Positions 18,998-35,340 of a stretch of DNA of 64,000 nucleotides are shown here, one piece after another (position 1 is the stretch's first letter; each line of letters begins with the position of its first letter). Source of the DNA: Candidatus Omnitrophota bacterium (GTDB lineage Bacteria; Omnitrophota; Gorgyraeia; Duberdicusellales; 4484-171). Below the pieces are notes generated by a model. It was not told the origin of the DNA and did no database searches. It was given only the letters and a program-made list of their open reading frames with translations. Position numbers and translations under genes: made by a program. The stretch spans positions 95,874-159,873 of the forward strand of contig JAIPGM010000004.1 of the NCBI GenBank assembly GCA_021735655.1, in the 5' to 3' direction.

Positions 18998-19393
18998 CTA
19001 TTCTTCCTCATTTACAAAAATCGCCGTTCCTTTAACAACCTTGGCATTTACAGGCGCAACCCATATTGCACCACTCCCATAACCACCGGCCATAGTAGAT
19101 GTCTGAGTTCCCGTATTTGTTAATAACACACCGTTTGCGCCGATTTTTGCCGCTTGTTTTTTAAGCTCCGCAACTGCATAATCTTGTGAGTCTTGATCCG
19201 TCCATCCCGAATCACTTGATGCTTCAACAACCCCAAGCACATCATATTTCTTTGGTTCCTCTAAATAAAGCTTTACTGATTGTGGATCCGTAGATGGCCG
19301 GGCAGTTCCAGTAAGGATAACACTACCCGTTGCACAGCCTATGAGAAACGAAGCTACTAGGCAACAAACAATAATTTTGGAATATTGTTTCAT
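18998..19393 (-). CDS. Lipoprotein, hypothetical
   Basis: 131 aa. Signal peptide with lipobox LIGC. Confidence 0.45.
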   Translation of the reverse strand: MKQYSKIIVCCLVASFLIGCATGSVILTGTARPSTDPQSVKLYLEEPKKYDVLGVVEASSDSGWTDQDSQDYAVAELKKQAAKIGANGVLLTNTGTQTSTMAGGYGSGAIWVAPVNAKVVKGTAIFVNEEE

Positions 19394-20154
19394 CTTTTTG
19401 CCCCCTCTATTTTTTCTTTATCAGAAAATATGGAAATAACAGAAGCTTTGTTGTTGTCACCGCCAAACCATATCCAAAACACATTGTCATCTGAAGTCAT
19501 CATCGCACCGGTATATTTAGAGAACATATTTTTAGGGTTTGCTTCCTTAAAAGCATCCAAAAATTCGGGATAAAAAATCTCATCAAATTTTACCAAAAAT
19601 TCATCTCTATTTTTAATTTCGCCGAGATCTGTGTTTAATGGGTAATAAACCATGTTGGAGACTTTTTCTTTGTCTCGATTTAGGACTGATCTTTTGAAAT
19701 CTTGGGCAAAATTATCCACCATTTCATCATCGTCCATTCCGCCAATAGCATACATGGAATTCAAATCGCCTGCACTGCCATAATCCATTTTAAGCCTTAT
19801 ATGCCCAGTTGCTTCCGCAGAACTTATGTCTCCCGCAATAACTTCACGATTCAGCTTGGAATCTCCATAAGCGTCATCTTGATCTTGAAAAGACGCATTG
19901 ATCACTATGCCATCCTCATTTTTTAAAGTAATTTTTCTGCCATCAAGAGTTCCGGAAAGCGGAATGCTCATATAATCCGAATCAAAATATAACTCACCAA
20001 TTACATTCTCCTGATCATATACAAGAGTTAATCCACCAGTTTGACCTGCAATGTCGCCCCTGTATGTCCAGTGCCAATCTTTGGTGAATGAATCACAATG
20101 CCCCTCTGCGCCAGTGAACAACAGACAAAAAACAAATATAAGCAATGCCCGCAT
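19390..20154 (-). CDS. Secreted hypothetical protein
   Basis: 254 aa. N-terminal signal peptide. Acidic. No recognisable domain. Confidence 0.4.
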   Translation of the reverse strand: MRALLIFVFCLLFTGAEGHCDSFTKDWHWTYRGDIAGQTGGLTLVYDQENVIGELYFDSDYMSIPLSGTLDGRKITLKNEDGIVINASFQDQDDAYGDSKLNREVIAGDISSAEATGHIRLKMDYGSAGDLNSMYAIGGMDDDEMVDNFAQDFKRSVLNRDKEKVSNMVYYPLNTDLGEIKNRDEFLVKFDEIFYPEFLDAFKEANPKNMFSKYTGAMMTSDDNVFWIWFGGDNNKASVISIFSDKEKIEGAKR

Positions 20155-20156
20155 TC

Positions 20157-21467
20157 CTAGACCTCTTTTTCCTTTAAGAAATCAAGTACGGGCTTGAATT
20201 TCTTTATTGTACTGATGATTTCGCCCTCTAACTCTACTGATTCTGTAAGCACCTTAGTTCCTCTGTCAATAGAATACCTAAAGTGTATACCGGGAGCCCC
20301 CGGCTCTTTATCCGCTTTTTTCAAAACATCACAAATATATTGAACGTCTTTTTGCGTATTAATATCACTCAACTTCATTTCAAAGAATTTAACCCATTTT
20401 TCATTGCCGGGCATTATGCGTTTCCCTGTTCTCGGCAAACGTTTTGAAACTACCAGCCTCGATTCCTTTCTGGCACCGCTTATAACCTGAAGGAATTTAT
20501 TTGTATTTGTAGATATCCGATTAAAAAATATGCCGATAGGGGTCTTACTCTGAGATGTCCGACCGTTGCGGACAACAGTGTTGATATCCAAACAACTCTT
20601 TGAAACCTCAATAGTAAAATTACATTGGTTAAAAACGTCCTTGCCATCCTTTGGTCTTTTAATTGCGACCCAAGCAAACCTCTCATCCTTGCCACTTCTC
20701 GATATGTTCCCGGGCTTAATAAATGAATATTCAGAACCGATTTCTTTCGGCAGTTTTTCTTTTATGATATTTGCCAGAGCTTTAAGTTTTTTCCTGAGAA
20801 TAGGGACGTAATACGGATTGGGGTCAATCCAAAAATCAAAATCCGAGTCTTTGAATCCATTAAATTCGGTCATTACGACTACCTCCATGTAATCAATAAA
20901 CTGCTCAATTAATTGTGCAACCGCAGATAGCGATTTATTTCCTTTTATTTTCTCAACTGTGCGACGGCATATTTTATGAACCTTCGACCAGCTAAGGTAT
21001 CTAACACGGTTATCGCTAATGCTATTTAAACTGCTTTTGTCATCTAAATTGTTCGTTATAACAACAAGGACATCTTTAGCACCTATATCGCTCAAATGCC
21101 GTCTAATTTGATCAAGATCCAATCTTGCCCGAACTTTCGATTCAATATGGATATTGTAATCTGCCAAATCGATCAAAGCATCAGGTCTGCTACCGCTTAA
21201 TCCTTTCTGCAGTTTAAAAGAAACCACCGGGCGATTTGGTGCCTCGATTGCTTTTAAGAATCCAGACAAAAGGTCGACAAAACCTGCCTGACAGCAAAAT
21301 TCGAATATATTGACCAGCCCTTTGGTAGTGTTATCCTCAACTTGGAAATCATACAAGGATTCTTTATCTCGCTTAGAAGGCCCCCGGTAATAAAAAAATA
21401 TGTTCTGATGAGGATCTCTCACGCTTTTCTCCCATATTCGGTCTTTAAAAATTTGCCATAAGCCCAC
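20157..21467 (-). CDS. Hypothetical protein with an N-terminal PD-(D/E)xK-like nuclease motif
   Basis: 436 aa. RPDALIDLADYNIHIESK fits PD...(D/E)xK spacing. No other domain recognised. 49-nt overlap with the upstream 197-aa gene. Confidence 0.4.
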   Translation of the reverse strand: MGLWQIFKDRIWEKSVRDPHQNIFFYYRGPSKRDKESLYDFQVEDNTTKGLVNIFEFCCQAGFVDLLSGFLKAIEAPNRPVVSFKLQKGLSGSRPDALIDLADYNIHIESKVRARLDLDQIRRHLSDIGAKDVLVVITNNLDDKSSLNSISDNRVRYLSWSKVHKICRRTVEKIKGNKSLSAVAQLIEQFIDYMEVVVMTEFNGFKDSDFDFWIDPNPYYVPILRKKLKALANIIKEKLPKEIGSEYSFIKPGNISRSGKDERFAWVAIKRPKDGKDVFNQCNFTIEVSKSCLDINTVVRNGRTSQSKTPIGIFFNRISTNTNKFLQVISGARKESRLVVSKRLPRTGKRIMPGNEKWVKFFEMKLSDINTQKDVQYICDVLKKADKEPGAPGIHFRYSIDRGTKVLTESVELEGEIISTIKKFKPVLDFLKEKEV

Positions 21468-22012
21468 AGGGCTTCATCAAGCCGCTTCCATGCAACCCCT
21501 TTTTTGCATAGCTCATTAAAAAATGGGGCATACTCCGCAAAATATATTTGTTCTTTTTGCTTGTTGCTATTTGGAATTTCATTGCGTCGGTTTTGACTCA
21601 AAAAGATAAAAGCCCTATAAACATGCTGATCAAATATCGGGAAATCATTCGGCGTGATTATGTGTAAAAGATATATTTTCCAGATAGCTCCGTTTACAAA
21701 ACTGAAATCTTTTAAGAAAGAATCGAGGGAAAAAAAGTCCTTAAGGTTATTGATGACATTCAGCTTGGCTTTAATATTCGATAGCACTACTTCTTTTTTC
21801 TGGGATAGTTTACTCCCATTTTTCCAAATAAATAATTTATCAATATCATCGATGCTGAATTTTTTCTTTCCGATAATAGGGACGTAATAATCTTCCATAG
21901 GATAGTTATAAAAACTGCTCCAGAATTTAACAAACTCATCTATTGTGACATTTTTTGTGTTTAAAACCGGGAAATTCATTATTGCTCCGTTAAATTTTCC
22001 CCACTTGGACAA
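21419..22012 (-). CDS. Hypothetical protein, partner of the PD-(D/E)xK protein
   Basis: 197 aa. No recognisable motif. Overlaps and is likely co-transcribed with the downstream 436-aa gene. Confidence 0.35.
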   Translation of the reverse strand: MSKWGKFNGAIMNFPVLNTKNVTIDEFVKFWSSFYNYPMEDYYVPIIGKKKFSIDDIDKLFIWKNGSKLSQKKEVVLSNIKAKLNVINNLKDFFSLDSFLKDFSFVNGAIWKIYLLHIITPNDFPIFDQHVYRAFIFLSQNRRNEIPNSNKQKEQIYFAEYAPFFNELCKKGVAWKRLDEALWAYGKFLKTEYGRKA

Positions 22013-22059
22013 TAGGCTTCATCAGAAAAAACATTGTGCAAAATGTTATGATTTTACTT

Positions 22060-22557
22060 TTACTCATTCTTCTCCTTTTTTCCGTTCTTTATTACCTTTT
22101 CTAATGCGTGGATAACTTTATCGACTTGAATGTTTATATCACGCTTTATTAGATGCTCCCATAAACGGACCACAATCCACCCTTTTCTTTTTAAAAATAG
22201 AGTGGTTTTTTTGTCTCGCAATCGATTCTTTTCTATTTTTGTTTTCCAAAAATCATTCTTTAATAAATGCTTCCAGCGAGAATACTGCCAACCATGCCAA
22301 AAATCGCTATCTAAGAAAACACACAGTTTAGCTCTTTTAAAAACGATATCTGGCTTCCCTTTTATAAGTTGCACATTTCTCTCAAATGTTTTCCTTGTTC
22401 GTTTTTTTAATGCGCGAATGAAATCTTCCTCAAATTTTGTGTCTCGAGACCGTATTTTTGACATTACAACAGAACGGTGTTCTTTTGTGATTTTGTCTGA
22501 TTCTCGTTTTTTCTTAAAATTGCGACCTAAATAGTTTTTGATTCTTCTCTTTGTCAT
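22060..22557 (-). CDS. vsr: Very-short-patch-repair endonuclease
   Basis: 165 aa. SKIRSRDTKFEEDF...GKPDIVFKRAKLCVFLDSDFWHGW matches the Vsr catalytic core. Adjacent to an m5C methyltransferase. Confidence 0.75.
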   Translation of the reverse strand: MTKRRIKNYLGRNFKKKRESDKITKEHRSVVMSKIRSRDTKFEEDFIRALKKRTRKTFERNVQLIKGKPDIVFKRAKLCVFLDSDFWHGWQYSRWKHLLKNDFWKTKIEKNRLRDKKTTLFLKRKGWIVVRLWEHLIKRDINIQVDKVIHALEKVIKNGKKEKNE

Positions 22558-22560
22558 AGC

Positions 22561-23736
22561 CTAATAAGACAATCCATATTTCTTCATTGCTTCTTTTAGT
22601 AATGGCGGTGATTTCCGTTCACCAAAAGCGTCCCCTAAAAGATGTACTATAAATTTCTCAGTTTTAGGTAAAATAACACTTGAATGCTGAACGACTAAAC
22701 TCACCCATTTATCAACCAGTTCTTTTGTTCTTATATATTCCTTTAATTCCCAATAGTGCCTGACCTCGTCAACCGTGAGTTTTGAAACAATTTCAATAAT
22801 TTCTTTAGCGTTTCTTTGGAGGTAATAAAATATCTTTGGAATCTTATGGTACGCCACGTCATTAATAACAATTGTCTGTTGTCCTCCAGCGGTAAATCTA
22901 TCTCTAAGCGAAGAATCCACCACACCATGACGAGCCGCTAACCAAGTCGCGAAATTTTGATATTTTGTTTGACTCCTACCAAATATCTCAGGGAATCTTG
23001 CCATAGCTTCATTTCTAAAGCGATTCTGTTTATCTTCATGAAGATTGCCCCACAAAGTAACTGTGGGACTTAGCATGGCGTCAACTTCATCCCCGGGATC
23101 CATCCACCAAGGTTCTTCTCCTTTTTTAGAAATTTTGCGAAAATAACGAACAACTTCCTTAATCGGATTATCTTGTTTCCGCAAAATGTTATATTCCGTT
23201 CCCATCTTATCAAATATGGTTTTCCCAGAATCAAGCTCCATATCTATCAAATATCTCGGGGAATGGGTTACAGCGATGTCGTAAAGACATTCTTCATATC
23301 TTCGAAACTTAAACTTTGGTGGAGCGACCAGTCTTCCAAAAAATAGATATATTCTTTCAACGCCTTCAACTCTTGTTGTTTCAAGGACACTATTGCCAGT
23401 ACTACGCCAATGATCTTGTTTGGTAATTTTTACTTCCACTCCGTAATATCGTTTCGCCACTATATCTGGAAATTTATGCCCTGATATAAGTTGTATCGTT
23501 CCTTCAAATTCAGTTTTTTTCGATGAAATCAACATAGAACCGTAGACTTCTTTTTCAAAATCTGATGAAGATAATCCGCAATAGCGCTTTGGAGCTTTTG
23601 ACGCTTCATCTTGAATGGTTTTAATCCCACCGTTCAATAAAGTCTCAAAAGAATTCTCACTCGCTTCTGTCCTTTTAGATATAATCATTTTAATCCTTTC
23701 TTGAAAATCTTTGGCCATAGCTCCTGTAGACGCCAC
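22561..23736 (-). CDS. Putative type II restriction endonuclease
   Basis: 391 aa. HKFPDIV...YGVEVKITK is a PD-(D/E)xK-like motif. Overlaps the methyltransferase by 52 nt, the classic RM gene arrangement. Confidence 0.5.
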   Translation of the reverse strand: MASTGAMAKDFQERIKMIISKRTEASENSFETLLNGGIKTIQDEASKAPKRYCGLSSSDFEKEVYGSMLISSKKTEFEGTIQLISGHKFPDIVAKRYYGVEVKITKQDHWRSTGNSVLETTRVEGVERIYLFFGRLVAPPKFKFRRYEECLYDIAVTHSPRYLIDMELDSGKTIFDKMGTEYNILRKQDNPIKEVVRYFRKISKKGEEPWWMDPGDEVDAMLSPTVTLWGNLHEDKQNRFRNEAMARFPEIFGRSQTKYQNFATWLAARHGVVDSSLRDRFTAGGQQTIVINDVAYHKIPKIFYYLQRNAKEIIEIVSKLTVDEVRHYWELKEYIRTKELVDKWVSLVVQHSSVILPKTEKFIVHLLGDAFGERKSPPLLKEAMKKYGLSY

Positions 23737-24974
23737 GCCACATTAAAAGCTAATAATGGTGGCACAGCGTTGCCAATCACTCTGTAACCATCTGATGGGC
23801 TCAAAGCAAACTCCGATCCTAAAACCGAAGCGCTTCTCGTAAAAGCGAAATCATCGGGAAAGGTTTGAATTCTGGCGCATTCTCGAACTGTCAACCGTCG
23901 CTCTTTTAGCCCCATATCAATTTCTTTAAGATTTTTTCCGCCATGCTCTTTCGACAAACGTCTAAATTCTATATTCCCATGATGTTCAGCTCGAATCGTT
24001 GGCCCTAATCCCATCACATTAACTTCACTTTGTCCTTGGCAATGTTTTCCATACCACTTAGCTCTTGAATAAGCTTTTTGAGAGGGGTCATTCGAGAATT
24101 CCGGTTCTTTCAGTCCAACAAAAGCGTCTTTAACTTTTACAAAGGGCAATAAGTGTGAATCTTCACTAATTTCACCATGCGTTCTTGGGGGATATGGGTT
24201 AAAGCACGAATCATCACTCAATAAGGTTAATTGTTCAATAGCTTTTCTAGTCAGAGCATCCCTTCTAAAACCGATAAAAACTACCCTCTCTCTAGTCTGG
24301 GGGGCACCATAATCCTGCGCTCTTAATACTTTAGCGTTAACAACCAAATAACCATTATCTCCAATAGATCCAAAATCATTTTCGATAATCTTCTTAGCGT
24401 CGGATAAAGATACTAGCCCCTTGACATTTTCGGCAAGAAATACTTTTGGCCGGACAATTTCAATAACAGCTCTCATCCACATGTAAAGCTTCCCCCGATT
24501 TTCTTCTGATGGTTCCTTGCCGTTTAACAATCCTCCATGATGTGCCTTGTGAGAATTAAAACCTTTGCGTTTTCCCGCCACGCTAAAATCTTGACACGGG
24601 AAACCACCAGTAACCAAATCAACTCTCGGAAAGACTCTCGCCGCTCCTGAAGAATGCTTCCTAACTAAATCAACAATACTTTCAGAATGAAAAAGCGATC
24701 CATTTTTTCCTTCTTTATCAAAATAAGGAACCCAACCAGCTTTAGCCGATTGTAAAATATCATTGGCAAAAACTGTTTTAAACACTGTTTTTGGCAATCG
24801 AACCCAATGCTTATTTATAGGATTTTTTAACCAATCTGGATGAATTATTGGATTAATGGATTTTTTAAGAACGATGAAATCACCTTCAAAACCTAAATCC
24901 ATACCACCGCAACCAGAGAACAATGAAAGTACTTTCAACGTTTGTGTCTTTTTTTTCATTTTTAGTCCTATCAA
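23685..24974 (-). CDS. DNA (cytosine-5)-methyltransferase
   Basis: 429 aa. Motif I LSLFSGCGGMDLGF. Motif IV GFPCQDFSVAGKRKG. Motif VI ENVKGLV. Motif VIII QTRERVVFIGF. Motif X GNAVPPLLA. Confidence 0.9.
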   Translation of the reverse strand: MIGLKMKKKTQTLKVLSLFSGCGGMDLGFEGDFIVLKKSINPIIHPDWLKNPINKHWVRLPKTVFKTVFANDILQSAKAGWVPYFDKEGKNGSLFHSESIVDLVRKHSSGAARVFPRVDLVTGGFPCQDFSVAGKRKGFNSHKAHHGGLLNGKEPSEENRGKLYMWMRAVIEIVRPKVFLAENVKGLVSLSDAKKIIENDFGSIGDNGYLVVNAKVLRAQDYGAPQTRERVVFIGFRRDALTRKAIEQLTLLSDDSCFNPYPPRTHGEISEDSHLLPFVKVKDAFVGLKEPEFSNDPSQKAYSRAKWYGKHCQGQSEVNVMGLGPTIRAEHHGNIEFRRLSKEHGGKNLKEIDMGLKERRLTVRECARIQTFPDDFAFTRSASVLGSEFALSPSDGYRVIGNAVPPLLAFNVAWRLQELWPKIFKKGLK

Positions 24975-25693
24975 TTTTCCATAAACCCTTCATCAGCAAA
25001 GCTGAAGAAAGAATTATCACCAATTATTACATGATCCAAAAAGTCAATTTTTATAGACTTGCTCACATTTAGAATATCCTTTGTTAAATTTCGATCGTCA
25101 ATACTTGGATCACAATTCCCAGAAGGATGATTGTGAGCGCAAATAAATGAACTAGAGCAACACTCTAGAGCCTTATGAAATATTTCCCTAACAATAGGAT
25201 TAACTTCATCGACTGTTCCTTTTCCAAGCTCAACGATATTTATCAATCGACTCTTGGTGTCAAGATAAAGAACCTTAAATTCTTCTTTCTTTAAATCACG
25301 CATGCGAGGCGATAATAAGGTAAACACATCTTTGGCATTTTCAATCCTAATTTTTTTGGGAATGATTTTCCCTTCATGGAATCTTTTGCCAATTTCTATC
25401 GATGCTCGTATTTGAGCTATCTTAGCGACACCAAGACCTTTAAACTCTTTCCAATCCAAATCCCCAGCCTGACTTAATTCCCGGAAAGAACCAAACTTTT
25501 TAATTACAGAACGAGCTAAATCCAAAGCGCTCTGTCCTCGTATCCCAATACGAAGAATAATTGCTAATAATTCGGCATCGCTTAAAGATTCTTCTCCTTT
25601 TTTTAAAAGCTTCTCTCTCGGTCGGTCATCCACCGGCCAAGCGCTTATTCCTGATGGTTTTCTAGTCTTTGTTTTTCCCAATTTTATACCCAA
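24971..25693 (-). CDS. RadC-like JAB-domain protein
   Basis: 240 aa. N-terminal HhH region LSDAELLAIILRIG. HNHPSGNCDPSIDDRNLT is the JAMM motif. The ORF track uses a TTG start. The N-terminus contains in-frame 12-bp tandem repeats. Confidence 0.8.
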   Translation of the reverse strand: MGIKLGKTKTRKPSGISAWPVDDRPREKLLKKGEESLSDAELLAIILRIGIRGQSALDLARSVIKKFGSFRELSQAGDLDWKEFKGLGVAKIAQIRASIEIGKRFHEGKIIPKKIRIENAKDVFTLLSPRMRDLKKEEFKVLYLDTKSRLINIVELGKGTVDEVNPIVREIFHKALECCSSSFICAHNHPSGNCDPSIDDRNLTKDILNVSKSIKIDFLDHVIIGDNSFFSFADEGFMEN

Positions 25694-25746
25694 TTTAATC
25701 CCTCGTTTAATCCCTCATTTAATCCCTCACGCACGCCAAATCATAC

Positions 25747-25947
25747 CTATTCCAGTACATCCCAATGTCCGCTTTTTCTCGAGCCAATACGCTTCAAAAA
25801 ACCTTCTTCCTTTAGCTTGGCAATGGCATTTTCCACTGTTCGCTGTGATAGCTGTATCTGATCCGCAATTTCATACGTTTTTATAAAAGAATCTGCCTCA
25901 ATGGCGTTTAAAACTTTCTCCGCGTTTATTCCGCACTTCTTCCGCAT
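25747..25947 (-). CDS. Winged-helix DNA-binding protein
   Basis: 66 aa. YEIADQIQLSQRTVENAIAKLKEEGFLKR is a wHTH. The start lies within three 11-bp tandem repeats. Confidence 0.5.
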   Translation of the reverse strand: MRKKCGINAEKVLNAIEADSFIKTYEIADQIQLSQRTVENAIAKLKEEGFLKRIGSRKSGHWDVLE

Positions 25948-25983
25948 TTCTTCCGCATTTTCTACCGCAATTACACTCTCATT

Positions 25984-27084
25984 TTAAACTATCCTTTTCT
26001 TGCTTCTTTTTTTTGAAGGTTTTTTACTGATTTGCGATTCCACCAAAAAACGCTCACGTTTTAACTCTTTGACAAGCTCGTCTTCCGTTGGCAAATATAA
26101 CTTATACCTCGAGGCAAATATCTGTTTGTTATCTTTAGGCAACGTGTACCTGACAACAGCGTCTTTTTTATCTTCGCACAAAATAAGTCCAACTGTTGGA
26201 TTGTCATCTTTCTGTTTCATGGATCGGTCGTAATAGTTTACATACATCTGCATTTGTCCGATATCCTGATGAACTAGTTTCCCAATTTTTAAATCGATAA
26301 GGACAAAGCATTTCAAGATAGTATTGTAAAAAACCAGATCAACATAAAAATGATCGCCATCCAATGTAATGCGTTTCTGTCTGCCTACAAATGTAAATCC
26401 TTTTCCAAGCTCAAGCAAAAACCTGGAAAGGTTATCAATAAGCGCCTGTTCCAGCTTGCTCTCGTATAATTTTGAGTGAGGAGATAATCCGGTAAATTCT
26501 AAAACATAAGGATCTTTTATCATATCTTCATATGTTGCCAGCTCTTGTCCTTTGCGAGCCAGCCTCATAAGACCTTTTTTGTCTTTGCTTAAAGCAAGCC
26601 GCTCATAAAGAAGTGTTCCTTTTTGTCGTTCAAGTTCGCGAGCTGACCAATTATTAGCGACGCACTCCGCCTCATAAAAGGATCTTGCATCAGGCTTGTC
26701 GACTCGCATCAATATTCGATAATGCGTCCAGCTCAATTCTTGACGCACTGCGTCAAGAATTGGATATGCTAAATAAAACTTTCGCATATTCGTCAAATTC
26801 GTAAAATCAAAGCCCTTGCCAAATTCATCTGAAAGTCGATGGGACAAATCTTCTATTGTTTTCTTTCCATATCCTGCGCGCTTCTTGCCTTTCTGTTCTT
26901 CTTCGACAATTTCTTTTCCGATATGCCAATAGGCTAAAACCATCTCCGTATTAACAGCGCGGGCGATATTGTTTCTTGCGTTCTCAATAATTGCGCAGAT
27001 TCGTTCGTACGCATTTGTTTTATTATTAACTCTCTTTTTGGCGATACTTCGAGAGCTTTTTTGAATGGCTTTTTTTCGTGGCAT
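25984..27084 (-). CDS. YhcG/DUF1016-family PDDEXK nuclease
   Basis: 366 aa. LSWTHYRILMRV, GFTFVGRQKRITLDGDHFYVDLVFYNTILKCFVLIDLKIGK and VGLILCEDK match the YhcG conserved blocks. Confidence 0.75.
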   Translation of the reverse strand: MPRKKAIQKSSRSIAKKRVNNKTNAYERICAIIENARNNIARAVNTEMVLAYWHIGKEIVEEEQKGKKRAGYGKKTIEDLSHRLSDEFGKGFDFTNLTNMRKFYLAYPILDAVRQELSWTHYRILMRVDKPDARSFYEAECVANNWSARELERQKGTLLYERLALSKDKKGLMRLARKGQELATYEDMIKDPYVLEFTGLSPHSKLYESKLEQALIDNLSRFLLELGKGFTFVGRQKRITLDGDHFYVDLVFYNTILKCFVLIDLKIGKLVHQDIGQMQMYVNYYDRSMKQKDDNPTVGLILCEDKKDAVVRYTLPKDNKQIFASRYKLYLPTEDELVKELKRERFLVESQISKKPSKKRSKKRIV

Positions 27085-27085
27085 C

Positions 27086-27262
27086 TTAGCAATTCCTCCT
27101 GCTCTTAATAAATTCTTCTAAATCTTCCGGCTTGATCTTCCACTGACCGATCTTCACGGCTTTAATTTCTTTTTTGCGTATTAAGTCTCGAATCCATTCA
27201 TCGGTAAGTCCGAGTTTTTCGGCTACTTCAGGTACAGTGAGATACTCTTTTATGTTTTCCAT
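27086..27262 (-). CDS. Excisionase-family HTH_17 small protein (not in the ORF track; below its size cutoff)
   Basis: Reverse-strand ATG at 27262 gives MENIKEYLTVPEVAEKLGLTDEWIRDLIRKKEIKAVKIGQWKIKPEDLEEFIKSRRNC, 58 aa. Same HTH_17 pattern as 11455..11694. Confidence 0.55.
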   Translation of the reverse strand: MENIKEYLTVPEVAEKLGLTDEWIRDLIRKKEIKAVKIGQWKIKPEDLEEFIKSRRNC

Positions 27263-27752
27263 AATTTTACACCTCGTGGAGTTATTGACTATGTATTACC
27301 ATATTCAAAACAGCATTAGTCCCTATTTTAGTACTATTAAACCCAATGGTCAAGCAAAATGCTCATAAACACTGCAATTACGATAATGCCGGATTATGCC
27401 CCGGATTTATAATCCCGCACCTCTGATATATCATTTCCCACGGCTAAAGACTCAAAATAATCGACTTTTGCGGAAATCTAATCAATTTCGGCGTATCTTG
27501 AAGCTGAAATGACCCAAAATAACTCCTTATTATCATTTAAGCCAGTAAATGATAATATGGCATTTTCTTATTATCACTTCCTTATAAGATTTGTGATGAA
27601 AATGGGCTCCGGATCAATTATCCTCACATCCGTTGTAACAGCCAAAACACGACAACACGACATTTTTCATGTCGTATAATGTCGTGTTTTTCAGGCTATT
27701 TTCGCCTTAAAAATTAGCTCTAAATATCCATAACACACATAAATACAAGCAT

Positions 27753-28007
27753 TTACGCAATATTAGGCTTTTTGCCATCACCAGACAATAGGACATGACA
27801 TCGATTTTTTATTTTAAGGTCACTGACAGACTGCCCCTCGCCCGACCCTCGGCAAACCCCCATGGTAAGGACCCATCTTTTTATGGCTTCCGGAGTTATA
27901 TTCAGCTTAAGCTTCACCTCATACCCATCAGGTGATTTTATCGTCACATAGGTCCAGAAGCCCGGCTTCCATTTCTTCTTTTTACGCTTATATCTGTACC
28001 ATCCCAT
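27753..28007 (-). CDS. Hypothetical basic protein
   Basis: 84 aa. Lys/Arg-rich N-terminus. No recognisable domain. Confidence 0.3.
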   Translation of the reverse strand: MGWYRYKRKKKKWKPGFWTYVTIKSPDGYEVKLKLNITPEAIKRWVLTMGVCRGSGEGQSVSDLKIKNRCHVLLSGDGKKPNIA

Positions 28008-28151
28008 AGATCACGTCCTTTTAAAATGCGTGCGGAGAAGGGCGTCAAGGAGGTTTACCAAAACAACGCCCCTTATCAGTCGCATTTAACTGATAAAACC
28101 TCTGCGATGGAACAGTTAAGCATCGCATACAGTTTCCCCGCATTATTTGTT

Positions 28152-28826
28152 TTAATCAATAACCGCTTCCTTTTTTTCCACAGGTTGAGGTCGATATCTT
28201 TTCATGATCTGGCGAATTTCTTTCTCAAGATCAAAGTTTGAAACCCAGTTGCTTTTACTTCTGATTTCTTCCTCAACATCAGCCACAGTAGGACGGTTTA
28301 ACCCAGCGATAACCCTGTCTTTTTCAGCATGAAATACATCATACGCCTCAGTGCCTAAGCTCGGGCTAAATGCCGGATATGATTCCAGATCACGCTTTGT
28401 CACCGCAGGGTGTCCATGTAAAGCAAAAGCCAATCCAAAAAGTTTTCCTTTTGCTTTCCAGAGATCAAGTTTTGCCTTATCACGGTCACGATTAAGGCGT
28501 TTTCTGATCTCTATAACTTTCTGAGATTCATCATCTTTCAAAGTGGTGAAAGCATCCTCAAGTTTTTCTTTTAGCTTCTCAAGGCTTTCGGACACCACGT
28601 CGAGATTGATATTGCATTCCTCCAAAGCTGAATCCGCTTCTTTTACAGCATTTGGATTAGCTTTTTCACCGCACATAATCCTGCTTCTGATTTCTTTTGC
28701 TTTTTCTTTAGCGTCTTGTTTTTCTTTTTCACATTGCTTCTGCTTCTCCTCAAGAGCTACGATCTGCTCGGCGATCTCATCTGGCGTGCTTTTGTCTTTT
28801 AACACATTTAAAAAATTAAGCTTCAT
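28152..28826 (-). CDS. Hypothetical coiled-coil protein
   Basis: 224 aa. E/K-rich heptad-like N-terminal half. Confidence 0.4.
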   Translation of the reverse strand: MKLNFLNVLKDKSTPDEIAEQIVALEEKQKQCEKEKQDAKEKAKEIRSRIMCGEKANPNAVKEADSALEECNINLDVVSESLEKLKEKLEDAFTTLKDDESQKVIEIRKRLNRDRDKAKLDLWKAKGKLFGLAFALHGHPAVTKRDLESYPAFSPSLGTEAYDVFHAEKDRVIAGLNRPTVADVEEEIRSKSNWVSNFDLEKEIRQIMKRYRPQPVEKKEAVID

Positions 28827-28830
28827 TGTC

Positions 28831-29244
28831 TTATCTCCTTTTTTTAGGTGCGGTTATTGATAATGCTTCTTCAAACGGACAATCCGTTTCGTTCTGATAC
28901 TTTCGAGCACGCCAAACATGATCAAGCTGTTCTGCGATTACCACACTGCCTGAATCTGCTTCTTTTTCCGGTGCGGTCTTACTTAAAGCGTCAGTTAACG
29001 TGCATTCAAATTTCTCACGGTACTCATACGCTTTCTTTAAGTGGTCAAGACGGACATCGCCTTCACTCGCCATGCTATCGTTCTTCTTAGCAGTCGCCTG
29101 CAAGGCTTCTGTGAGTGAACAGTTGTGCCTCATCATATAAAGATTAGCGTCAATTAAATGAACGAGTTGTTTTTCTTCAGTTGACCCCGGAACATACCGG
29201 CTGTTCATCCCGCTTATTGTGTTTAATAAATGAGCTTGTTTCAT
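28831..29244 (-). CDS. Hypothetical protein with three internal repeats
   Basis: 137 aa. Repeats: CSLTEALQATAKK, CTLTDALSKTAPEK, CPFEEALSITAPKK. Confidence 0.4.
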   Translation of the reverse strand: MKQAHLLNTISGMNSRYVPGSTEEKQLVHLIDANLYMMRHNCSLTEALQATAKKNDSMASEGDVRLDHLKKAYEYREKFECTLTDALSKTAPEKEADSGSVVIAEQLDHVWRARKYQNETDCPFEEALSITAPKKRR

Positions 29245-29343
29245 TTTTTATTCCTCCTGTTTTTTTGTTTATCCACACTAAAAATATCCTTAATTTTCAA
29301 TCCATAATTACATCATTTTCACCCCCTTTTCTGATGATCGTGA

Positions 29344-29634
29344 GCGTTGTGAACGTCGATTCCACTACTTTCTAAATCCCTCTTTACGCCTCTTTTACAC
29401 CCCTTTTTTGTGACTTTCCTGACCCTTTCCCTTATATTTTTCTTTTTTTAGAACAGAGGGGTTTTTACGTTCACAATGTTCACAAACCACACAAATCCTT
29501 GTAGATTAAGAAGTTAACCACTGAGCGTAGGTGTGACCGTAGACTCTGGACGTTCACAACGTTCACACTTTTCAGTACGGTCTCGGGTCCTCACGGTCAC
29601 AACGCTCACCGACGTTCACACCGACGCTCACACC
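29344..29634. repeat. Cluster of at least 8 copies of ACG(T/C)TCACA in both orientations (iteron/operator-like)
   Basis: gcgttgtgaacgtcg; acgttcacaatgttcacaaaccacaca; gacgttcacaacgttcacac; cggtcacaacgctcaccgacgttcacaccgacgctcacacc. Lies between the primase 3' end and the 28831..29244 gene start. Confidence 0.6.
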
Positions 29635-31935
29635 ATTTTCAAAGAGCGAATTGCCCTTAGTTTTCCGTAAAATAAACAGCTTCCTGCCGGTACCGGCTTC
29701 ACGTTTATTACTACGTAAAATATCAATCCCCACACTCCTCATAACAGGTGCGATACGCATAAGTTCAGAAGCTAAAGCCCTAGCATTAGCGGGAATTGTT
29801 TTATCAAATCCTGTCTCAGGCTGAACACTTGAAAGAAGCGTAGTCGCAGAACCTGCCCATTCACCACCGTTAAATTCCACAAGATAAGTAAGCCTCTGTG
29901 CAAGCGTGCTTTCTTCGGCAGTATCTTCCCATTTATGATCAACCGACTCCTGATACTTCTGTAAAAACTCATCCTGTGAAAAGCCTAAATATCCCGACAA
30001 GCCTGAACCCCATTTAGCGAAATCCGACATCCTGAAACGTTCATGCCCTGATACTCCGTCAACAATAGCCATAGCTTTTGAAAGGGCGGTAAAGAATCCG
30101 CCGAGAATGCCCGGCAAAGAAGCCCTCCACTCATCAGCGATTTGTTTTTCAGGTCTTGTTTCTTTGAGAATAGGAATATCGAATATTATTGATCTATCTA
30201 AAAGGTCGGGTCGGCAGATGGAACTGCCTATGCCGTTTAAAACAAAACATCTGCGGTACGTCCTTATAAATTCTTCGTCATTAGTGTAGAGTGACCGTTT
30301 CATGTCGCCTTCACCGGTTACCGCACGACATAAAAAATCACTGAACCATTCAGATACACGAGAGAGATTGTCGAAGTTATTCACCCAATGCTTATCAGCG
30401 ATCATCTGAGCCTGTTCTAAGTCTTTGGGAGCCGAAATTGACATTACTTTTGACGGATCACATAAACTTTTTATTAATCGGGAATTATTTGACTTACCAG
30501 TGCCTTGCTCGCCGAGTTGGACAGGTATAACATGGGGAATATCAGGAATGAAAAACGTAGCTATAACCGTCATAAAAAGGCAGGCGTCATCTTTATTAAT
30601 ATTACAGAAGTCTAAAAGTTTTATCGGATCAAATCCTTTAACAGGCATGACCTGCTCAGACTGGTGAGGGTAACGCTTAAATATCGGCGGGAGAAAAACA
30701 ATTTCCCAGCCGTCTTTTGTAATCACAACTCCACGCCAGTCTTTAGTCGTAAGGTCGTAATAAATCGCTCCGTTATACCAGCCTACACGGTTATACAGCT
30801 CAATCTGCCGACCGCCTTCGCATTGTGCCTCAACCTGAATACGTGCCTGTTTTAACGCCTCATTGCCCGGAGGATGACCGAAATCCCTGCGGTACCGCAT
30901 TGCAAAACAGTTCCTGAAACGTGAACTGCTCGTCTGGCATACTTCAAAGTGTTTATCATAAGGAAGGACAACATAAGGATTGCCCTGCTGATCGGAAAAA
31001 TATTCCGTGATCATTTCTTCACAGTCCCGGGTTATTATCTCGCCTTGAGTAAGCTTCTTTTGCTTAGGAGTGTTTGAAGCAGTAAATTCGTCCTTAGTAT
31101 CCTGAATCGCTTTATCAATTGCCGATTCTCCGTATGTCTTGCCATCGCTAAAATGCTTCTCATCCCACTTTGATCGCATAAGACCAGAGTGACGGAACAA
31201 AGAATCCATCCCCACAGAATCTTTGCCAGTCCAAAAGGCGAGTTTATTGCATAAAGCAAGATCCGCTTCTGATTGGGAAGGATAATCATCCTGCCATCTG
31301 CCTTCATATAATTTAAAGAAACTATCTGCGTCTTTGCTTTTCCTGATCCTGTTAAGGAGAGATTTTACTTTCTTATTCTCCGCGTCCAGATTTTCAAGAT
31401 GTTCATACAAGGCTTTGAGCTTGTCGGAACATTCGACAATCTTGTCATTACAGCCCTTAACAATGTCTCCGGTCGTAATAAGAAATCTATTCCCTGAATA
31501 CATCTCCACATTAAACGAGCTGAACTTGCGGTCTCTGGGAAGCGTGCCTTTGCAGATAGTGTGAAGTCCTGTTCCGCTGACTGAATATTCTGTGTAACTG
31601 TTAAGCTCGGATATTATTTTTTGGACGAAAGGCGTAATAATTCCGTCTTTAATACAGTTATCAAAATCTATTCCCGCATGTGGCGATCTAAGGGCAAAAC
31701 CGATAGCATCAAATTTCAAGATTTCAGCTTTGGATAAAACCACATCCAACGCACACCATGTCTTTGGATTATTTGATTGGGCATGTCCGCCGGTAAGCGC
31801 ATTGATAGGTTCTTTCCGTGGCTTTTTACCTTTTTGAGGAACAAACCGGAAGCCCACCCATATAGGCAAGTCTTTCATTTCCTGCGGTATATTTTCCACA
31901 TACCATTTCTTCTCTTTTCTTCTCTCTTTCTTCAT
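29572..31935 (-). CDS. DNA primase-polymerase (prim-pol N-terminal domain) fused to a P-loop SF3-helicase-like domain (P4/D5-type primase-helicase)
   Basis: 787 aa. Prim-pol-like N-terminus. Walker A GEQGTGKSNNS mid-protein. The last ~20 codons read through the repeat cluster, so the real stop may be earlier. Confidence 0.6.
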   Translation of the reverse strand: MKKERRKEKKWYVENIPQEMKDLPIWVGFRFVPQKGKKPRKEPINALTGGHAQSNNPKTWCALDVVLSKAEILKFDAIGFALRSPHAGIDFDNCIKDGIITPFVQKIISELNSYTEYSVSGTGLHTICKGTLPRDRKFSSFNVEMYSGNRFLITTGDIVKGCNDKIVECSDKLKALYEHLENLDAENKKVKSLLNRIRKSKDADSFFKLYEGRWQDDYPSQSEADLALCNKLAFWTGKDSVGMDSLFRHSGLMRSKWDEKHFSDGKTYGESAIDKAIQDTKDEFTASNTPKQKKLTQGEIITRDCEEMITEYFSDQQGNPYVVLPYDKHFEVCQTSSSRFRNCFAMRYRRDFGHPPGNEALKQARIQVEAQCEGGRQIELYNRVGWYNGAIYYDLTTKDWRGVVITKDGWEIVFLPPIFKRYPHQSEQVMPVKGFDPIKLLDFCNINKDDACLFMTVIATFFIPDIPHVIPVQLGEQGTGKSNNSRLIKSLCDPSKVMSISAPKDLEQAQMIADKHWVNNFDNLSRVSEWFSDFLCRAVTGEGDMKRSLYTNDEEFIRTYRRCFVLNGIGSSICRPDLLDRSIIFDIPILKETRPEKQIADEWRASLPGILGGFFTALSKAMAIVDGVSGHERFRMSDFAKWGSGLSGYLGFSQDEFLQKYQESVDHKWEDTAEESTLAQRLTYLVEFNGGEWAGSATTLLSSVQPETGFDKTIPANARALASELMRIAPVMRSVGIDILRSNKREAGTGRKLFILRKTKGNSLFENGVSVGVNVGERCDREDPRPY

Positions 31936-32207: not shown

Positions 32208-32217
32208 CTTTTTTCCT

Positions 32218-32995
32218 TAAAATGTTGCACCCATTTTCAGATATACGACGTACCCCTGAAAACTGTCGGGATTTATTTCCCTATGGGGTATATACGACGA
32301 CTTTTCGCATTTTGTCCCACTGCAAGATGTTTTTACCCCTCACTACGTACATACAGATTTTTTTCAAAAAGTGTCCCCCCTTAGAGCGTATATACGTAAA
32401 AAAACTTTAAAATGTTGCAGGCTAAACTAAAATTTTTCATAATCAGCCATCCTCAAAGCGTATATACGGAAAAATTTCTCAAAGTGTCTCAGCTTTTTTA
32501 CATTTTTTTTAAAATCTGCCCTCCAGAGCATACATACGTATAAATTTCCCAAAATGTTGCATGCTAAATTAAAATTCTTGCCCCCACCGGGTACATACAA
32601 CTTTTTTTGCCAAAGTGTCTCACTAAAAATCAAAATATCTGTCCCATAGCGTATATTCCCCGCATTTCTCAAAAGTGTCAGAAATATTTTCTTCCCACAG
32701 CGTACATACCGGGTTTTTCCAAAAAGTGTCGGGCTTATTTTGCTTCTATTCATGTATTCAGGATTTTTTCGAAAAGTGTCGGATTTTTCTAACCCCCTAT
32801 TAGTACATTCCGGATTTTTCTACAAAGTGTCGGAACTTTTTTTATTTTTCCTGCAACACTTTCAAGGAAAACGTCGTATATACGTATTAGGGTGGGACAC
32901 TTTCGCCTAAAAAACTGTATATACGTAGTAGGGAGGTAATTTTCTTGAAGAAATTTCCGACACTTTCGGCATTTTTCCGGAATATACATATATGG
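32218..32995. repeat. Iteron-like array: about 11 direct and 3 inverted copies of a bipartite motif (C)GTATATAC(G) ... ~10-12 nt ... AAAGTGTC, period ~50-70 bp
   Basis: Direct units start near 32241, 32290, 32348, 32389, 32460, 32530, 32592, 32651, 32703, 32753 and 32803. Inverted units lie at 32853..32991. CGTATATACG is itself a palindrome. Confidence 0.8.
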
Positions 32996-33059
32996 AGGGT
33001 ATTAGCTTGACTTGTCCCGAAGGGTGTTATAGGGGTGTTGTATTAAGGAGGTTTTAAAA

Positions 33060-34715
33060 ATGAGCGCAGAGAAGAAAAGAAAAAAGTTCGTGATTTACAC
33101 ACGCTGTTCAACTGATGATCAGGCAAAGGGTGATTTCACCACGCTTGACGCTCAGGCTCACCACTGCCGGAATATGCTTGATGCATTCGGCTACGAAATG
33201 GCTGATTTTGGGGATAAAGGCATCATTAATGATGACGGCTATTCAGGCAAAGATCTGAACCGCCCCGGCATTCAAGCTATTCTTAAAGACATCCAATCCA
33301 AGAAGTCGTTTGACGGTATTATATTCTTCAGGCTTGATAGGCTGACGCGCAATCCTCGTGACCTTTACGGCATGATCGACACGTTTAAGGCTGAGGATAT
33401 CGACTTTTTATCAGTGAGAGAAAATCTGGACAGCTCAACAGCCATAGGCAGGGTTATGATCGGCATAATCGGCTTATTGTCGGCATTTGAGCGTGAACTT
33501 ACAGGTGAACGCGTCCGTGCTTCGGCTATCGCCAGAGCAAGGCAGGGCAAATGGGTCGGCGGCAAACCGCCTTTTGGTTATAGGTTGGTTAAAACCGGGG
33601 AACAATTATCGAATGGCCGTAGACCCAGCCGAATAGTTATCGATACAGCTATCGCGCCTTATATCCATATGATCTTTAAACTGGCCGCTGATAATAAAAC
33701 TCTCTCGGAAATCGGAAATGAACTCCTCAAAAGAAACGTTCCCACGTTCAAAAGTAAAGTATGGTGCAAACAAACAATATCGAAAATCATCAAAAACCCT
33801 TTTTATAAAGGAATGATTTCTTACGCGGGGGAAATAAGCAAAGGATTACATGAAGCGATCGTAAATGAAGCCCTTTGGAGAAAAGCGAATAAAATTATAT
33901 CCGCTAATATCCCCGGGCATAGATTTCTGAAAACCACGCATGATTATAAACACCTGCTAAAAGGTATTCTTCGCTGTGGATCATGCGGAAGCTATTATAT
34001 CTCCACACACGCTAAAGGAAATATGGGGAATAAATTCTATTATTACGAATGTAGCAAGACACGCCAAAAGCTCGGATGTAACGCGAAAAGAATATCATCG
34101 ACCGGATTTGATCAAGCTGTCATTAAATTCCTAAACAGAGCCTCAGAGGATCAGGATATCATTATCAACGCCATAGGAAACGCCATTAAAGATTCCTCCG
34201 CTAATCTGCATAAATACGATAAAGACATCCGTGAAATAAAAAAGAAAATTGACTCAGTAAAAGAGTCAACAGATAAACTGATCGATCTGGCTATGAATAG
34301 CGTTATCCCCAAGGGACGCACATATTCAGAAAAAATGGACGCTCTTGAGTTAGAGTTAACTTTGCTTGAGGATAAACTTTCGAAGAAGGAGGCTAATAAA
34401 AAAGCCGCTGAAATGTCGGTACACTCCAACGAATACCTGCACACAAACCTTAAGATCGCTATGCAATACCTCGAGCAAGCCCCGCCAGACGCCCAAATCG
34501 CCCTTTTAAAGGTGCTTATCAAAGAAATAAGGCTCTATGACGATCATGTTAAGCTGGAAATGTATATCGGCGAGCCTGACGGCGGGATTGTGCGGGATCT
34601 AATCCTGAAGGAACCCCAAAAACAGCAAACTCCGCCCCCTTTTGAGGGACAGAGTTCGACTGGTTGTCAACTATGGCGGGGTCGATGGGATTCGAACCCA
34701 CGATCACCTGCGTGA
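33060..34715 (+). CDS. Large serine recombinase (integrase)
   Basis: 551 aa. Resolvase catalytic N-terminus FVIYTRCSTDDQ. Recombinase domain. Zn-ribbon CGSCGSYY...YYECS...GCNAKR. Coiled coil. The 3' end overlaps tRNA-Asp by 39 nt. Confidence 0.85.
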   Translation: MSAEKKRKKFVIYTRCSTDDQAKGDFTTLDAQAHHCRNMLDAFGYEMADFGDKGIINDDGYSGKDLNRPGIQAILKDIQSKKSFDGIIFFRLDRLTRNPRDLYGMIDTFKAEDIDFLSVRENLDSSTAIGRVMIGIIGLLSAFERELTGERVRASAIARARQGKWVGGKPPFGYRLVKTGEQLSNGRRPSRIVIDTAIAPYIHMIFKLAADNKTLSEIGNELLKRNVPTFKSKVWCKQTISKIIKNPFYKGMISYAGEISKGLHEAIVNEALWRKANKIISANIPGHRFLKTTHDYKHLLKGILRCGSCGSYYISTHAKGNMGNKFYYYECSKTRQKLGCNAKRISSTGFDQAVIKFLNRASEDQDIIINAIGNAIKDSSANLHKYDKDIREIKKKIDSVKESTDKLIDLAMNSVIPKGRTYSEKMDALELELTLLEDKLSKKEANKKAAEMSVHSNEYLHTNLKIAMQYLEQAPPDAQIALLKVLIKEIRLYDDHVKLEMYIGEPDGGIVRDLILKEPQKQQTPPPFEGQSSTGCQLWRGRWDSNPRSPA

Positions 34716-34752
34716 CAGGCAGGGGACTTAAGCCAGGCTAATCGACGACCCC
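34677..34752 (-). tRNA. tRNA-Asp (GTC)
   Basis: Reverse strand GGGGTCGTCGATTAGCCTGGCTTAAGTCCCCTGCCTGTCACGCAGGTGATCGTGGGTTCGAATCCCATCGACCCCG. 7-bp acceptor stem. Anticodon loop CTGTCAC. TTCGAAT T-loop. G73 discriminator. Confidence 0.85.
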
Positions 34753-35018: not shown

Positions 35019-35059
35019 TCTCTGCCTCCTTTTTTTAATTCTTCTTGGCTAAATCTAAA

Positions 35060-35133
35060 TGGGCGATACAGGACTTGAACCTGTGACCCCTTCCATGTCA
35101 AGGAAGTACTCTAGCCAACTGAGCTAATCGCCC
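35060..35133 (-). tRNA. tRNA-Val (GAC)
   Basis: Reverse strand GGGCGATTAGCTCAGTTGGCTAGAGTACTTCCTTGACATGGAAGGGGTCACAGGTTCAAGTCCTGTATCGCCCA. Anticodon loop TTGACAT. Confidence 0.85.
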
Positions 35134-35141
35134 AAAAAGTA

Positions 35142-35227
35142 TGGGCGGGGAGGGACTCGAACCCTCACGTCCCTCACGGGACATCGGATTTTAAGTCCGA
35201 GCTGTCTGCCAATTCCAACACCCGCCC
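35142..35227 (-). tRNA. tRNA-Leu (TAA), class II with a long variable arm
   Basis: Reverse strand GGGCGGGTGTTGGAATTGGCAGACAGCTCGGACTTAAAATCCGATGTCCCGTGAGGGACGTGAGGGTTCGAGTCCCTCCCCGCCCA. 86 nt. Confidence 0.85.
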
Positions 35228-35267
35228 ATACTTATTAGTAATAATTGTTGCTTATTTTATCAGCAAA

Positions 35268-35340
35268 AGGCGTGGGCCGGATTTGAACCGGCGCATAATG
35301 GTTTTGCAGACCACTGCCTTACCAACTTGGCTACCACGCC
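35268..35340 (-). tRNA. tRNA-Cys (GCA)
   Basis: Reverse strand GGCGTGGTAGCCAAGTTGGTAAGGCAGTGGTCTGCAAAACCATTATGCGCCGGTTCAAATCCGGCCCACGCCT. Anticodon loop CTGCAAA. U73 discriminator. Confidence 0.85.

Follow-up and report, generated by a model that had tools for sequence, protein, structure and literature searches.

A cluster of short repeats at the 3′ end of a primase-helicase gene (rep) in a Candidatus Omnitrophica genome is, with a probability of roughly 80%, the cognate replication origin of the encoded protein, a fused primase-helicase of the 'PriRep' initiator type. This reading is built from the sequence of the locus: the pattern of the sites, their conservation across a family, their linkage to rep, constraint at the DNA level within the ORF, and the domain architecture of Rep. 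All coordinates are positions in the window, which is the whole 64 kb stretch of DNA that was analysed, and the gene strand is the minus strand. The rep ORF (29572–31935, minus strand) encodes 787 aa and the next gene is at 28831–29244. The gene and its putative origin are located on an island of ~15 kb, integrated by a serine recombinase.

A pattern search finds six exact copies of ACGYTCACA in the 64 kb window, all of them within 29348–29632; 0.38 occurrences are expected by chance and none of 100 shuffles gives six. A relaxed search with the 8-mer core ACGYTCAC, allowing up to one mismatch, identifies 12 sites (ACGNTCAC, ≤1 mismatch) in the 292 bp at 29340–29631, and 44 further sites are scattered across the other 63.7 kb (~41 per kb in the cluster vs 0.7 per kb). 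A sequence-only reading of the same DNA had reported at least eight copies of ACG(T/C)TCACA, and it is borne out as to the cluster (12 relaxed sites) but not as to the count (six exact copies). It had also noticed tandem doublets and inverted copies, and these are present as four doublets with a 9-bp period (29550/29559, 29467/29476, 29593/29602 and 29340/29349) and four inverted sites (at 29340, 29349, 29521 and 29533), with eight sites forward and four reverse on the gene strand. The same reading had placed the cluster between the primase stop and the 28831–29244 gene, which holds for the eight noncoding sites, all no more than 232 nt after the stop, but not for the remaining four (29593–29631), which are coding and lie in the last 63 nt of the rep ORF.

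Read along the gene strand, the cluster begins with the four forward iterons within the gene (GTGAGCGT at 29624–29631, GTGAACGT at 29612–29619, a second GTGAGCGT at 29602–29609, and GTGACCGT at 29593–29600). These are followed by the rep stop codon (29572–29574), a forward doublet immediately after it (TGTGAACGTTGTGAACGT; 29550–29567, minus strand, with sites at 29559 and 29550), and a reverse pair (ACGGTCACACCTACGCTCAG on the gene strand; 29521–29540, minus strand, with sites at 29533 and 29521). An iteron-free block at 29484–29520 (minus strand) is semi-conserved in alignments (GGTTAA..AATCTACAAG..) and could be a site for a host factor. A second forward doublet (TGTGAACATTGTGAACGT on the gene strand; 29467–29483, minus strand, with sites at 29476 and 29467) borders a 110-bp spacer (29357–29466), which diverges in sequence between aligned relatives and is presumed to be the unwinding region. 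The array closes with a reverse doublet (ACGTTCACAACGCTCAC on the gene strand; 29340–29356, minus strand, with sites at 29349 and 29340) that is the most conserved block of the region. Two sets of inverted arms span these elements, one at 29340–29356 and 29593–29609 (94% complementary) and the other at 29331–29357 and 29549–29575 (81% complementary).

The A+T content of the spacer is 63%, against an average of 61% across the window, and 37% of stretches of its size match it in richness, so a classical A+T-rich unwinding element is weak in the window. Its strand bias is pronounced, with 74.5% pyrimidine on the plus strand (and hence purine-rich on the gene strand), in the top 0.14% of the window. 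Across the family the spacer averages 64% A+T vs 55% for the locus, and the purine-richness on the gene strand is kept. The highest A+T stretch (29260–29320, about 80%) is outside the iterons. An exact DnaA-box consensus (TTATCCACA) is present at 29269–29277 on the plus strand, 25 nt upstream of the start of the 28831–29244 gene, and is kept in close relatives. It was set aside, being outside the rep-origin cassette described below and expected about 0.5 times per window by chance. In the clade containing loci L005 and L007 the site-free block, at +50 to +85 after the stop, reads TTATCCGCA..TAATCCACA, which is near to two DnaA boxes.

The window Rep hits Pfam PF22763 and the PHROG DNA primase families, and its sequence is the same as that of MCF7908178.1, which is annotated 'hypothetical protein' in a Candidatus Omnitrophica MAG. 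An archaeo-eukaryotic-type primase-polymerase (residues ~13–297) is followed by a middle domain and a P-loop ATPase of helicase-like type; a winged-helix domain and a disordered tail make up the C-terminal part. PDB profile searches match residues 13–297 to SaPI5 PriRep5 (7OLA, E = 7e-48) and to the primase of phage NrS-1, and no Pfam or NCBIfam family is matched by residues ~300–787 (29572–31038). The Walker A motif GEQGTGKS at residues 475–482 is invariant in the family, as are other motifs. A full-length model of Rep has fold matches to NrS-1, AsfvPrimPol, poxvirus D5/E5, 7ola_C, Cch (5dgk), and the pRN1 primase; those of the helicase half to D5/E5, 7ola_C, and Cch are weak (E ~0.006–0.03) because the ATPase core is poorly modelled (pLDDT <50 at residues 493–593).

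The predicted winged-helix domain (residues ~677–758; 29662–29907, minus strand; topology H-beta-H-H-beta-beta) is presumed to be the reader of the iterons. The residue at 720, which falls in the first turn of what is predicted to be the recognition helix, is Ala in loci with GTGA[A/C] iterons and Trp in those with GTGAG, and residue 752, in the wing, switches between Lys and Arg along with it (Ala and Lys in the window). This correspondence holds in 69 of 71 loci, but these are not independent and perhaps represent two or three clades, and because clade structure confounds the correlation it is a lead only. The disordered C-terminal tail (residues 762–787; 29575–29652, minus strand) has a pLDDT of about 30–40 in two structure models; its linker (GVSVGVNVGERCDRE) is encoded by iterons, and its DPRPY tip is acidic and conserved. 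An acidic stretch with RPF or RPY closes the proteins of the Rep family after the disordered linker (29575–29592 in the window). Acidic-aromatic C-terminal tips are also found in bacterial SSB (DDDIPF) and in T7 gp4 and gp2.5, and the Rep tip, because it resembles these, may be a partner-docking peptide.

A protein search yields 1235 relatives, and among the matches listed about 70 are full-length homologues. Nearly all of these are 760–810 aa long, and almost all end with an acidic stretch and RPF or RPY. The end of the rep ORF as called is by this comparison correct. The earlier doubt about the primase stop is thereby not supported, and an earlier stop or an alternative primase frame was rejected, since the homologues have the same length and share the terminal RPF/RPY. 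A search of phage records returned only short matches of ~71–74%, to Lactobacillus phage primase genes and to one unannotated human-gut phage contig.

Related loci were collected from MAGs, metagenomes, and IMG/VR; 95 of the 96 are real relatives and one is marginal. IMG/VR contributed one of the real relatives (L095) and the marginal locus (L096; a 52-residue match at 44% identity). The source MAGs are mostly of Candidatus Omnitrophota and include the complete Velamenicoccus archaeovorus genome, and some are labelled Planctomycetia, Thermodesulfovibrionia, or Victivallaceae. The layout was analysed in 75 non-redundant loci with Reps 55–92% identical, which are not independent samples. The commonest 7-mers near the rep stop are in these loci always of the form TGTGAnn, and the arrangement seen in the window recurs, running from forward sites in the tail and a forward doublet at the stop through a reverse pair to a forward doublet and a reverse doublet that enclose a purine-rich spacer of ~110 bp. 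Sites reach into the rep ORF in nearly all loci, with the in-gene forward sites at about −83/−71/−60/−41 or −72/−60/−50/−29 relative to the stop. A forward site is situated at +4 (there is one no more than 10 nt after the stop in 55/75 loci), reverse sites are at +12 to +44, and a forward doublet is at +88/+97 in about 50 of the 75. In most of the 75 loci this doublet is faced by a reverse doublet, whose position across the family is about +197/+206; the distal doublet (GTTCACAACG.TCA) is invariant in 9/9 aligned loci. Departures from the layout include two loci (L009 and L088) with a short tail (RKRPDELSEPRPF) and no in-gene sites that keep the downstream sites, and two (L080 and L081) with no tail and a minimal form composed of one or two forward sites at the stop, ~70 nt of A-rich sequence, and a reverse doublet.

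The genes downstream of the cluster vary by locus (orf137 with orf224, orf224 alone, a serine recombinase gene, or unrelated DNA), and the cluster is present throughout. It also accompanies proteins that have the helicase and C-terminal half only, as well as versions with other primases (PF09250 and PF01807). As the cluster persists with changed primases and changed flanks, its constant partner is the helicase plus winged-helix half of Rep. The equivalents of residues ~300–787 occur elsewhere joined to a PF09250 Prim-Pol or a PF01807 zf-CHC2 domain, or alone as proteins of about 530 aa, and to judge from these sequences the helicase half and the putative origin together behave as a mobile helicase-origin module. 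In three of the helicase-only variants (L010, L011, and L013) a conserved G+C-rich stretch (..GGGTCCTTCCAGGGG..GGGCGAGGCGCA..TTTGTGAGTGATTTCAG) at +230 to +330 replaces the usual downstream gene.

One relative, locus L022, separates rep and the cluster from the remainder of the island. Its DNA is 85–100% identical to the window from inside the recombinase gene to the rep ATG, and again from 244 nt past the rep stop (90% there, and 85–98% leftwards from the boundary), and its orf137, orf224, and DUF5659 proteins are 99%, 94%, and 94% identical to those of the window. Between the rep ATG and a point shortly beyond the last doublet, identity falls to 55–70%, and the L022 iterons are GTGAGC/GTGAGG vs GTGAAC in the window. 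The distal breakpoint is at about window position 29329; in the BLAST comparison with L022 the second segment starts at query position 5608, which puts the distal edge of the swapped cassette at 29329–29330, 244 nt after the stop. Because the divergent segment spans the rep ATG to past the last repeat, rep and the cluster were exchanged as one unit, which speaks against two alternatives, an operator read by some other island-encoded regulator and a target of the recombinase.

An operator array is an alternative, but a very unlikely one. By this account a regulator encoded elsewhere in the island (an HTH, Xis-like, or DUF5659 protein) would control the 28831–29244 gene and those beyond it, and the position of the cluster between rep and the next genes, with HTH-type proteins encoded nearby, is in its favour. 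No intrinsic terminator and no promoter-like site are predicted on the gene strand within the cluster; the first of these means that read-through transcription would cross it, but the second counts against an operator, as do the sites inside the rep ORF in nearly all loci. The cluster is also kept where the downstream genes are unrelated or are replaced by the recombinase gene, and in L022 the regulator candidates and downstream genes are 94–99% identical to those of the window, yet the repeats differ and the divergence stops just past the last one. Iteron origins often autoregulate too, and a regulatory side-role for the cluster is conceivable. Of the two functions that the sequence-only reading had offered for the repeats, the operator is thus disfavoured by the persistence of the cluster with differing downstream genes and its change beside near-identical ones, and the origin gains from an iteron-origin anatomy that travels with the primase-helicase gene in 75 loci and is swapped with it as one cassette.

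Nothing points to the cluster being a 'second' origin, as had been proposed. The array that lies upstream at 32210–33000, between the recombinase gene and the DUF5659/rep operon, is of a different repeat kind, composed of about 12 degenerate units of 50–70 bp (GACACTTT .. GTATATAC .. GGG). It is present in the closest relatives of the window and a few others and is missing from many loci that keep the cluster at the rep 3′ end. Being absent there and located outside the swapped cassette, it is disfavoured as an origin, and it could be a regulatory or partition-like site. A 108-aa ORF within it (32427–32753) is probably not a gene. Two GTGAAC sites in the recombinase gene (33493 and 33505) were likewise rejected as a second Rep-binding region; they encode the conserved peptide FERELTGER and are still GTGAAC in L022, where the iterons are GTGAGC/GTGAGG.

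The island extends leftwards from about 34700, and the similarity to L022 begins at ~34697. A tRNA-Asp predicted at 34674–34752 overlaps the 3′ end of the serine recombinase ORF (33060–34715), and a cluster of Val, Leu, and Cys tRNAs at 35059–35340 adjoins it; the tRNA-Asp region is probably the right end of the island and its integration site. The gene order is large serine recombinase, repeat array, DUF5659, rep and origin, two or three small genes, an excisionase-like HTH, a YhcG nuclease, RadC, and a Dcm/Vsr module. The cargo at 22060–27262 encodes a YhcG/DUF1016 nuclease, RadC, a Dcm methylase, a 391-aa protein, Vsr, and a 58-aa excisionase/MADS1-like HTH. It looks defence-related, and the Dcm methylase, 391-aa protein, and Vsr likely constitute a restriction-modification module. 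No circular contigs that would represent an excised form are present among the related loci collected.

These surroundings invite a recombination or packaging function, in which the repeats would serve the serine recombinase for attachment or resolution, or would be a pac/cos-like site for a helper phage. The cluster contains several inverted repeats, and a serine recombinase gene is found in the collected flanks of 59/96 loci, in some directly downstream of the cluster. This function is nonetheless very unlikely. The island is integrated with the cluster intact and internal, so it cannot be attP, and the repeat type tracks the clade of Rep: the L022 recombinase is 77% identical to that of the window but the repeats differ, and loci with recombinases only ~25% identical to the window's keep the layout. 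PHROGs and Pfam scans of the island ORFs at 19390–28826 reveal no packaging genes (terminase or capsid), with matches to the nuclease, RadC, methylase, and Vsr only.

The inverted copies could alternatively be the stems of an RNA structure in the 3′-terminal part of the rep transcript, acting in stability, attenuation, or termination, and the concerted changes of forward and reverse copies across clades would then be compensatory. The RNA fold of 29330–29640 is slightly more stable than that of shuffles (z = −2.46), but any inverted repeat yields such a score; forward sites outnumber reverse ones eight to four, and the direct doublets co-change too, which pairing does not require. The cluster has no T-run terminator and no Rfam match, and we regard this explanation as highly improbable.

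The in-gene repeats are, by comparison of the coding and noncoding copies, DNA signals and not a peptide repeat, because they are read in two codon phases and synonymous variation across them is suppressed. The variable linker between the conserved ...GTGRKLFILRK and the tip is rich in GVN, GVS, CEQ, CED, and CER tripeptides, which are TGTGAAC-like DNA translated in two different phases. In the window the two phases give V-S/V-N and G-E-R/C-D-R, and in-gene sites are in two phases in 54/75 loci. A motif learned from the noncoding part of each locus has a density of 27.9 per kb over the final 100 nt of rep, compared with 0.76 per kb elsewhere in the gene. The GTGA core is constant and the two bases that follow it differ by clade (AAC, ACC, AGC, AGG, AAG, or AAT), and coding and noncoding copies co-vary, with a match within the same locus of 0.289 vs 0.159±0.016 (maximum 0.21) in 2000 locus shuffles. 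In a comparison of five close relatives, 3/21 codons of the tail vary at the third position, vs 250/440 of the body (Fisher p = 1.5e-4), and the amino-acid variability of the tail is not lower (3/21 vs 33/440). The doublets that flank the spacer have 0/40 variable positions, vs 48/204 in the spacer together with the sequence downstream of the distal doublet; the forward one (29467–29483) is free of variable positions in four close relatives.

That the repeats arose incidentally, from a repetitive low-complexity peptide in the primase tail and chance similarity downstream, is hardly credible: the homologues do keep a repeat-like, repeat-encoded tail (GVN, CEQ, and CED tripeptides), which the sequence-only reading would have taken as a mark of coding sequence with incidental repetition, but one DNA motif gives different tripeptides in two phases and co-varies with its noncoding copies, synonymous change is restricted even as amino acids vary, two thirds of the sites (eight of 12) are noncoding, and L009 and L088 keep the downstream sites without any in the gene.

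The origin reading is strengthened by comparison with known systems, among them the Staphylococcus aureus pathogenicity island (SaPI) origins. In these, six to twelve iterons immediately follow rep; they surround an A+T-rich centre, with two or more on either side in opposite directions, and are read by the C-terminal winged helix of Rep, a self-loading helicase (PMC9371898). The locus described here similarly has a putative initiator primase-helicase (fused in SaPI5 also), short iterons immediately 3′ of rep (12 sites, eight after the stop and four in the ORF), opposed doublets on either side of the spacer (29467–29483 and 29340–29356), and a predicted C-terminal winged helix in Rep. The rep/origin pair is matched and clade-specific, and the primase domain is homologous by sequence (7OLA). 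However, the helicase half of Rep is without detectable sequence similarity and has a weak fold match only, and the iterons are 8–9 bp long rather than 5–6 bp, with four of them inside the ORF. The island differs further in its large serine recombinase and its Omnitrophota host, and it shows no sign of a helper phage, packaging genes, or induction. By analogy the cluster would work like a SaPI origin, and the island is not filed as a phage-inducible chromosomal island (PICI) because no packaging genes were found in it.

SCCmec, which serine recombinases mobilise, carries a self-loading helicase, Cch2, whose C-terminal domain binds direct repeats at a putative origin immediately 3′ of cch2 (PMC7581432). 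Both are integrative elements with a large serine recombinase and a helicase with repeats 3′ of its gene, and in many of the relatives here the recombinase gene follows the putative origin, as ccrC follows cch2. The SCCmec iterons number three and are 5 nt long, and its polymerase-type primase (CCPol-MP) is separate from the helicase, whereas the present locus has 12 sites, a fused primase, and the coding overlap.

The ORF904 protein of pRN1 contains a primase, a superfamily-3 helicase, and a winged helix, and the pRN1 origin, built around a long inverted repeat whose interior measures ~60–100 nt, is found in the ~170 bp that follow the gene (PMC4234260). Rep has the same predicted domain order, and its proposed origin lies just 3′ of the gene with inverted arms (the 94% and 81% complementary pairs). 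The pRN1 origin is a stem-loop of unconserved sequence, with no iterons defined, in an archaeal host, and the repeats here are sequence-specific and conserved.

Iterons within the coding sequence of an initiator are known from phage lambda, where those in the O gene encode a segment dispensable for DNA binding and their number alters the length of O (PMC7466680). The whole lambda origin, including its A+T-rich part, lies in the middle of the gene, whereas only the first four of the 12 sites are coding here, at the extreme 3′ end, and the spacer and its flanking doublets are downstream of the stop. O also has neither helicase nor primase and relies on the host DnaB.

The alpha protein of satellite phage P4 likewise joins a primase to a helicase, and its C-terminal winged-helix domain binds the origin by recognising octamer repeats, in ori and crr. 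The P4 repeat TGTTCACC resembles CGTTCACA of the cluster, a resemblance that is a lead only; a literature search for the P4 octamer found nothing relevant. P4 is unlike the present locus in having a DnaG/Toprim-type primase and two separated repeat regions. The Dehalococcoides IME1 element, described in a preprint, belongs to a different family.

As the anatomy of the locus fits that of self-loading helicase origins, we propose that the winged-helix C-terminal domain of Rep would bind the 8–9 bp iterons (TGTGAACGT and variants), and that the facing doublets would orient two helicase rings oppositely across the 110-bp purine-rich spacer. The spacer would then melt, the helicase would load itself, and the N-terminal primase-polymerase domain would lay the first primers. 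The extra sites (the doublet at the stop, the reverse pair, and the four in the gene) may raise local Rep occupancy or tune copy number, those in the gene being tolerated as coding because they are located in the disordered linker of Rep, and the acidic ...RPY/F tip beyond this linker may contact a partner protein. Binding by Rep, melting, double-hexamer loading, and replication itself are steps that we infer by analogy with the systems above.

The principle of iterons adjoining the gene for a self-loading helicase is already known, and what sets this locus apart is the little-studied host, the lambda-like overlap with coding sequence, and the exchange of cassettes. The origin reading gives a function to a conserved coding/noncoding overlap in mobile islands of Omnitrophota and other anaerobe metagenomes, and it delimits a small cassette, about 2.9 kb of rep plus origin, in which specificity positions can be predicted. 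The locus would also be a natural case of two overlapping codes, a protein tail and predicted initiator sites, and of modular exchange between initiators and origins. A broader and decidedly tentative possibility, which we think rather doubtful as a whole, is that the islands are a widespread and undescribed family of self-replicating integrative elements in Omnitrophota and neighbouring anaerobe lineages, in which the Rep tail is written by the origin, the SSB-like tip recruits the host replisome, and rep-origin cassettes are swapped to escape incompatibility or competition. If that were true, the cassette would be a ready minimal replicon for a phylum without genetic tools.
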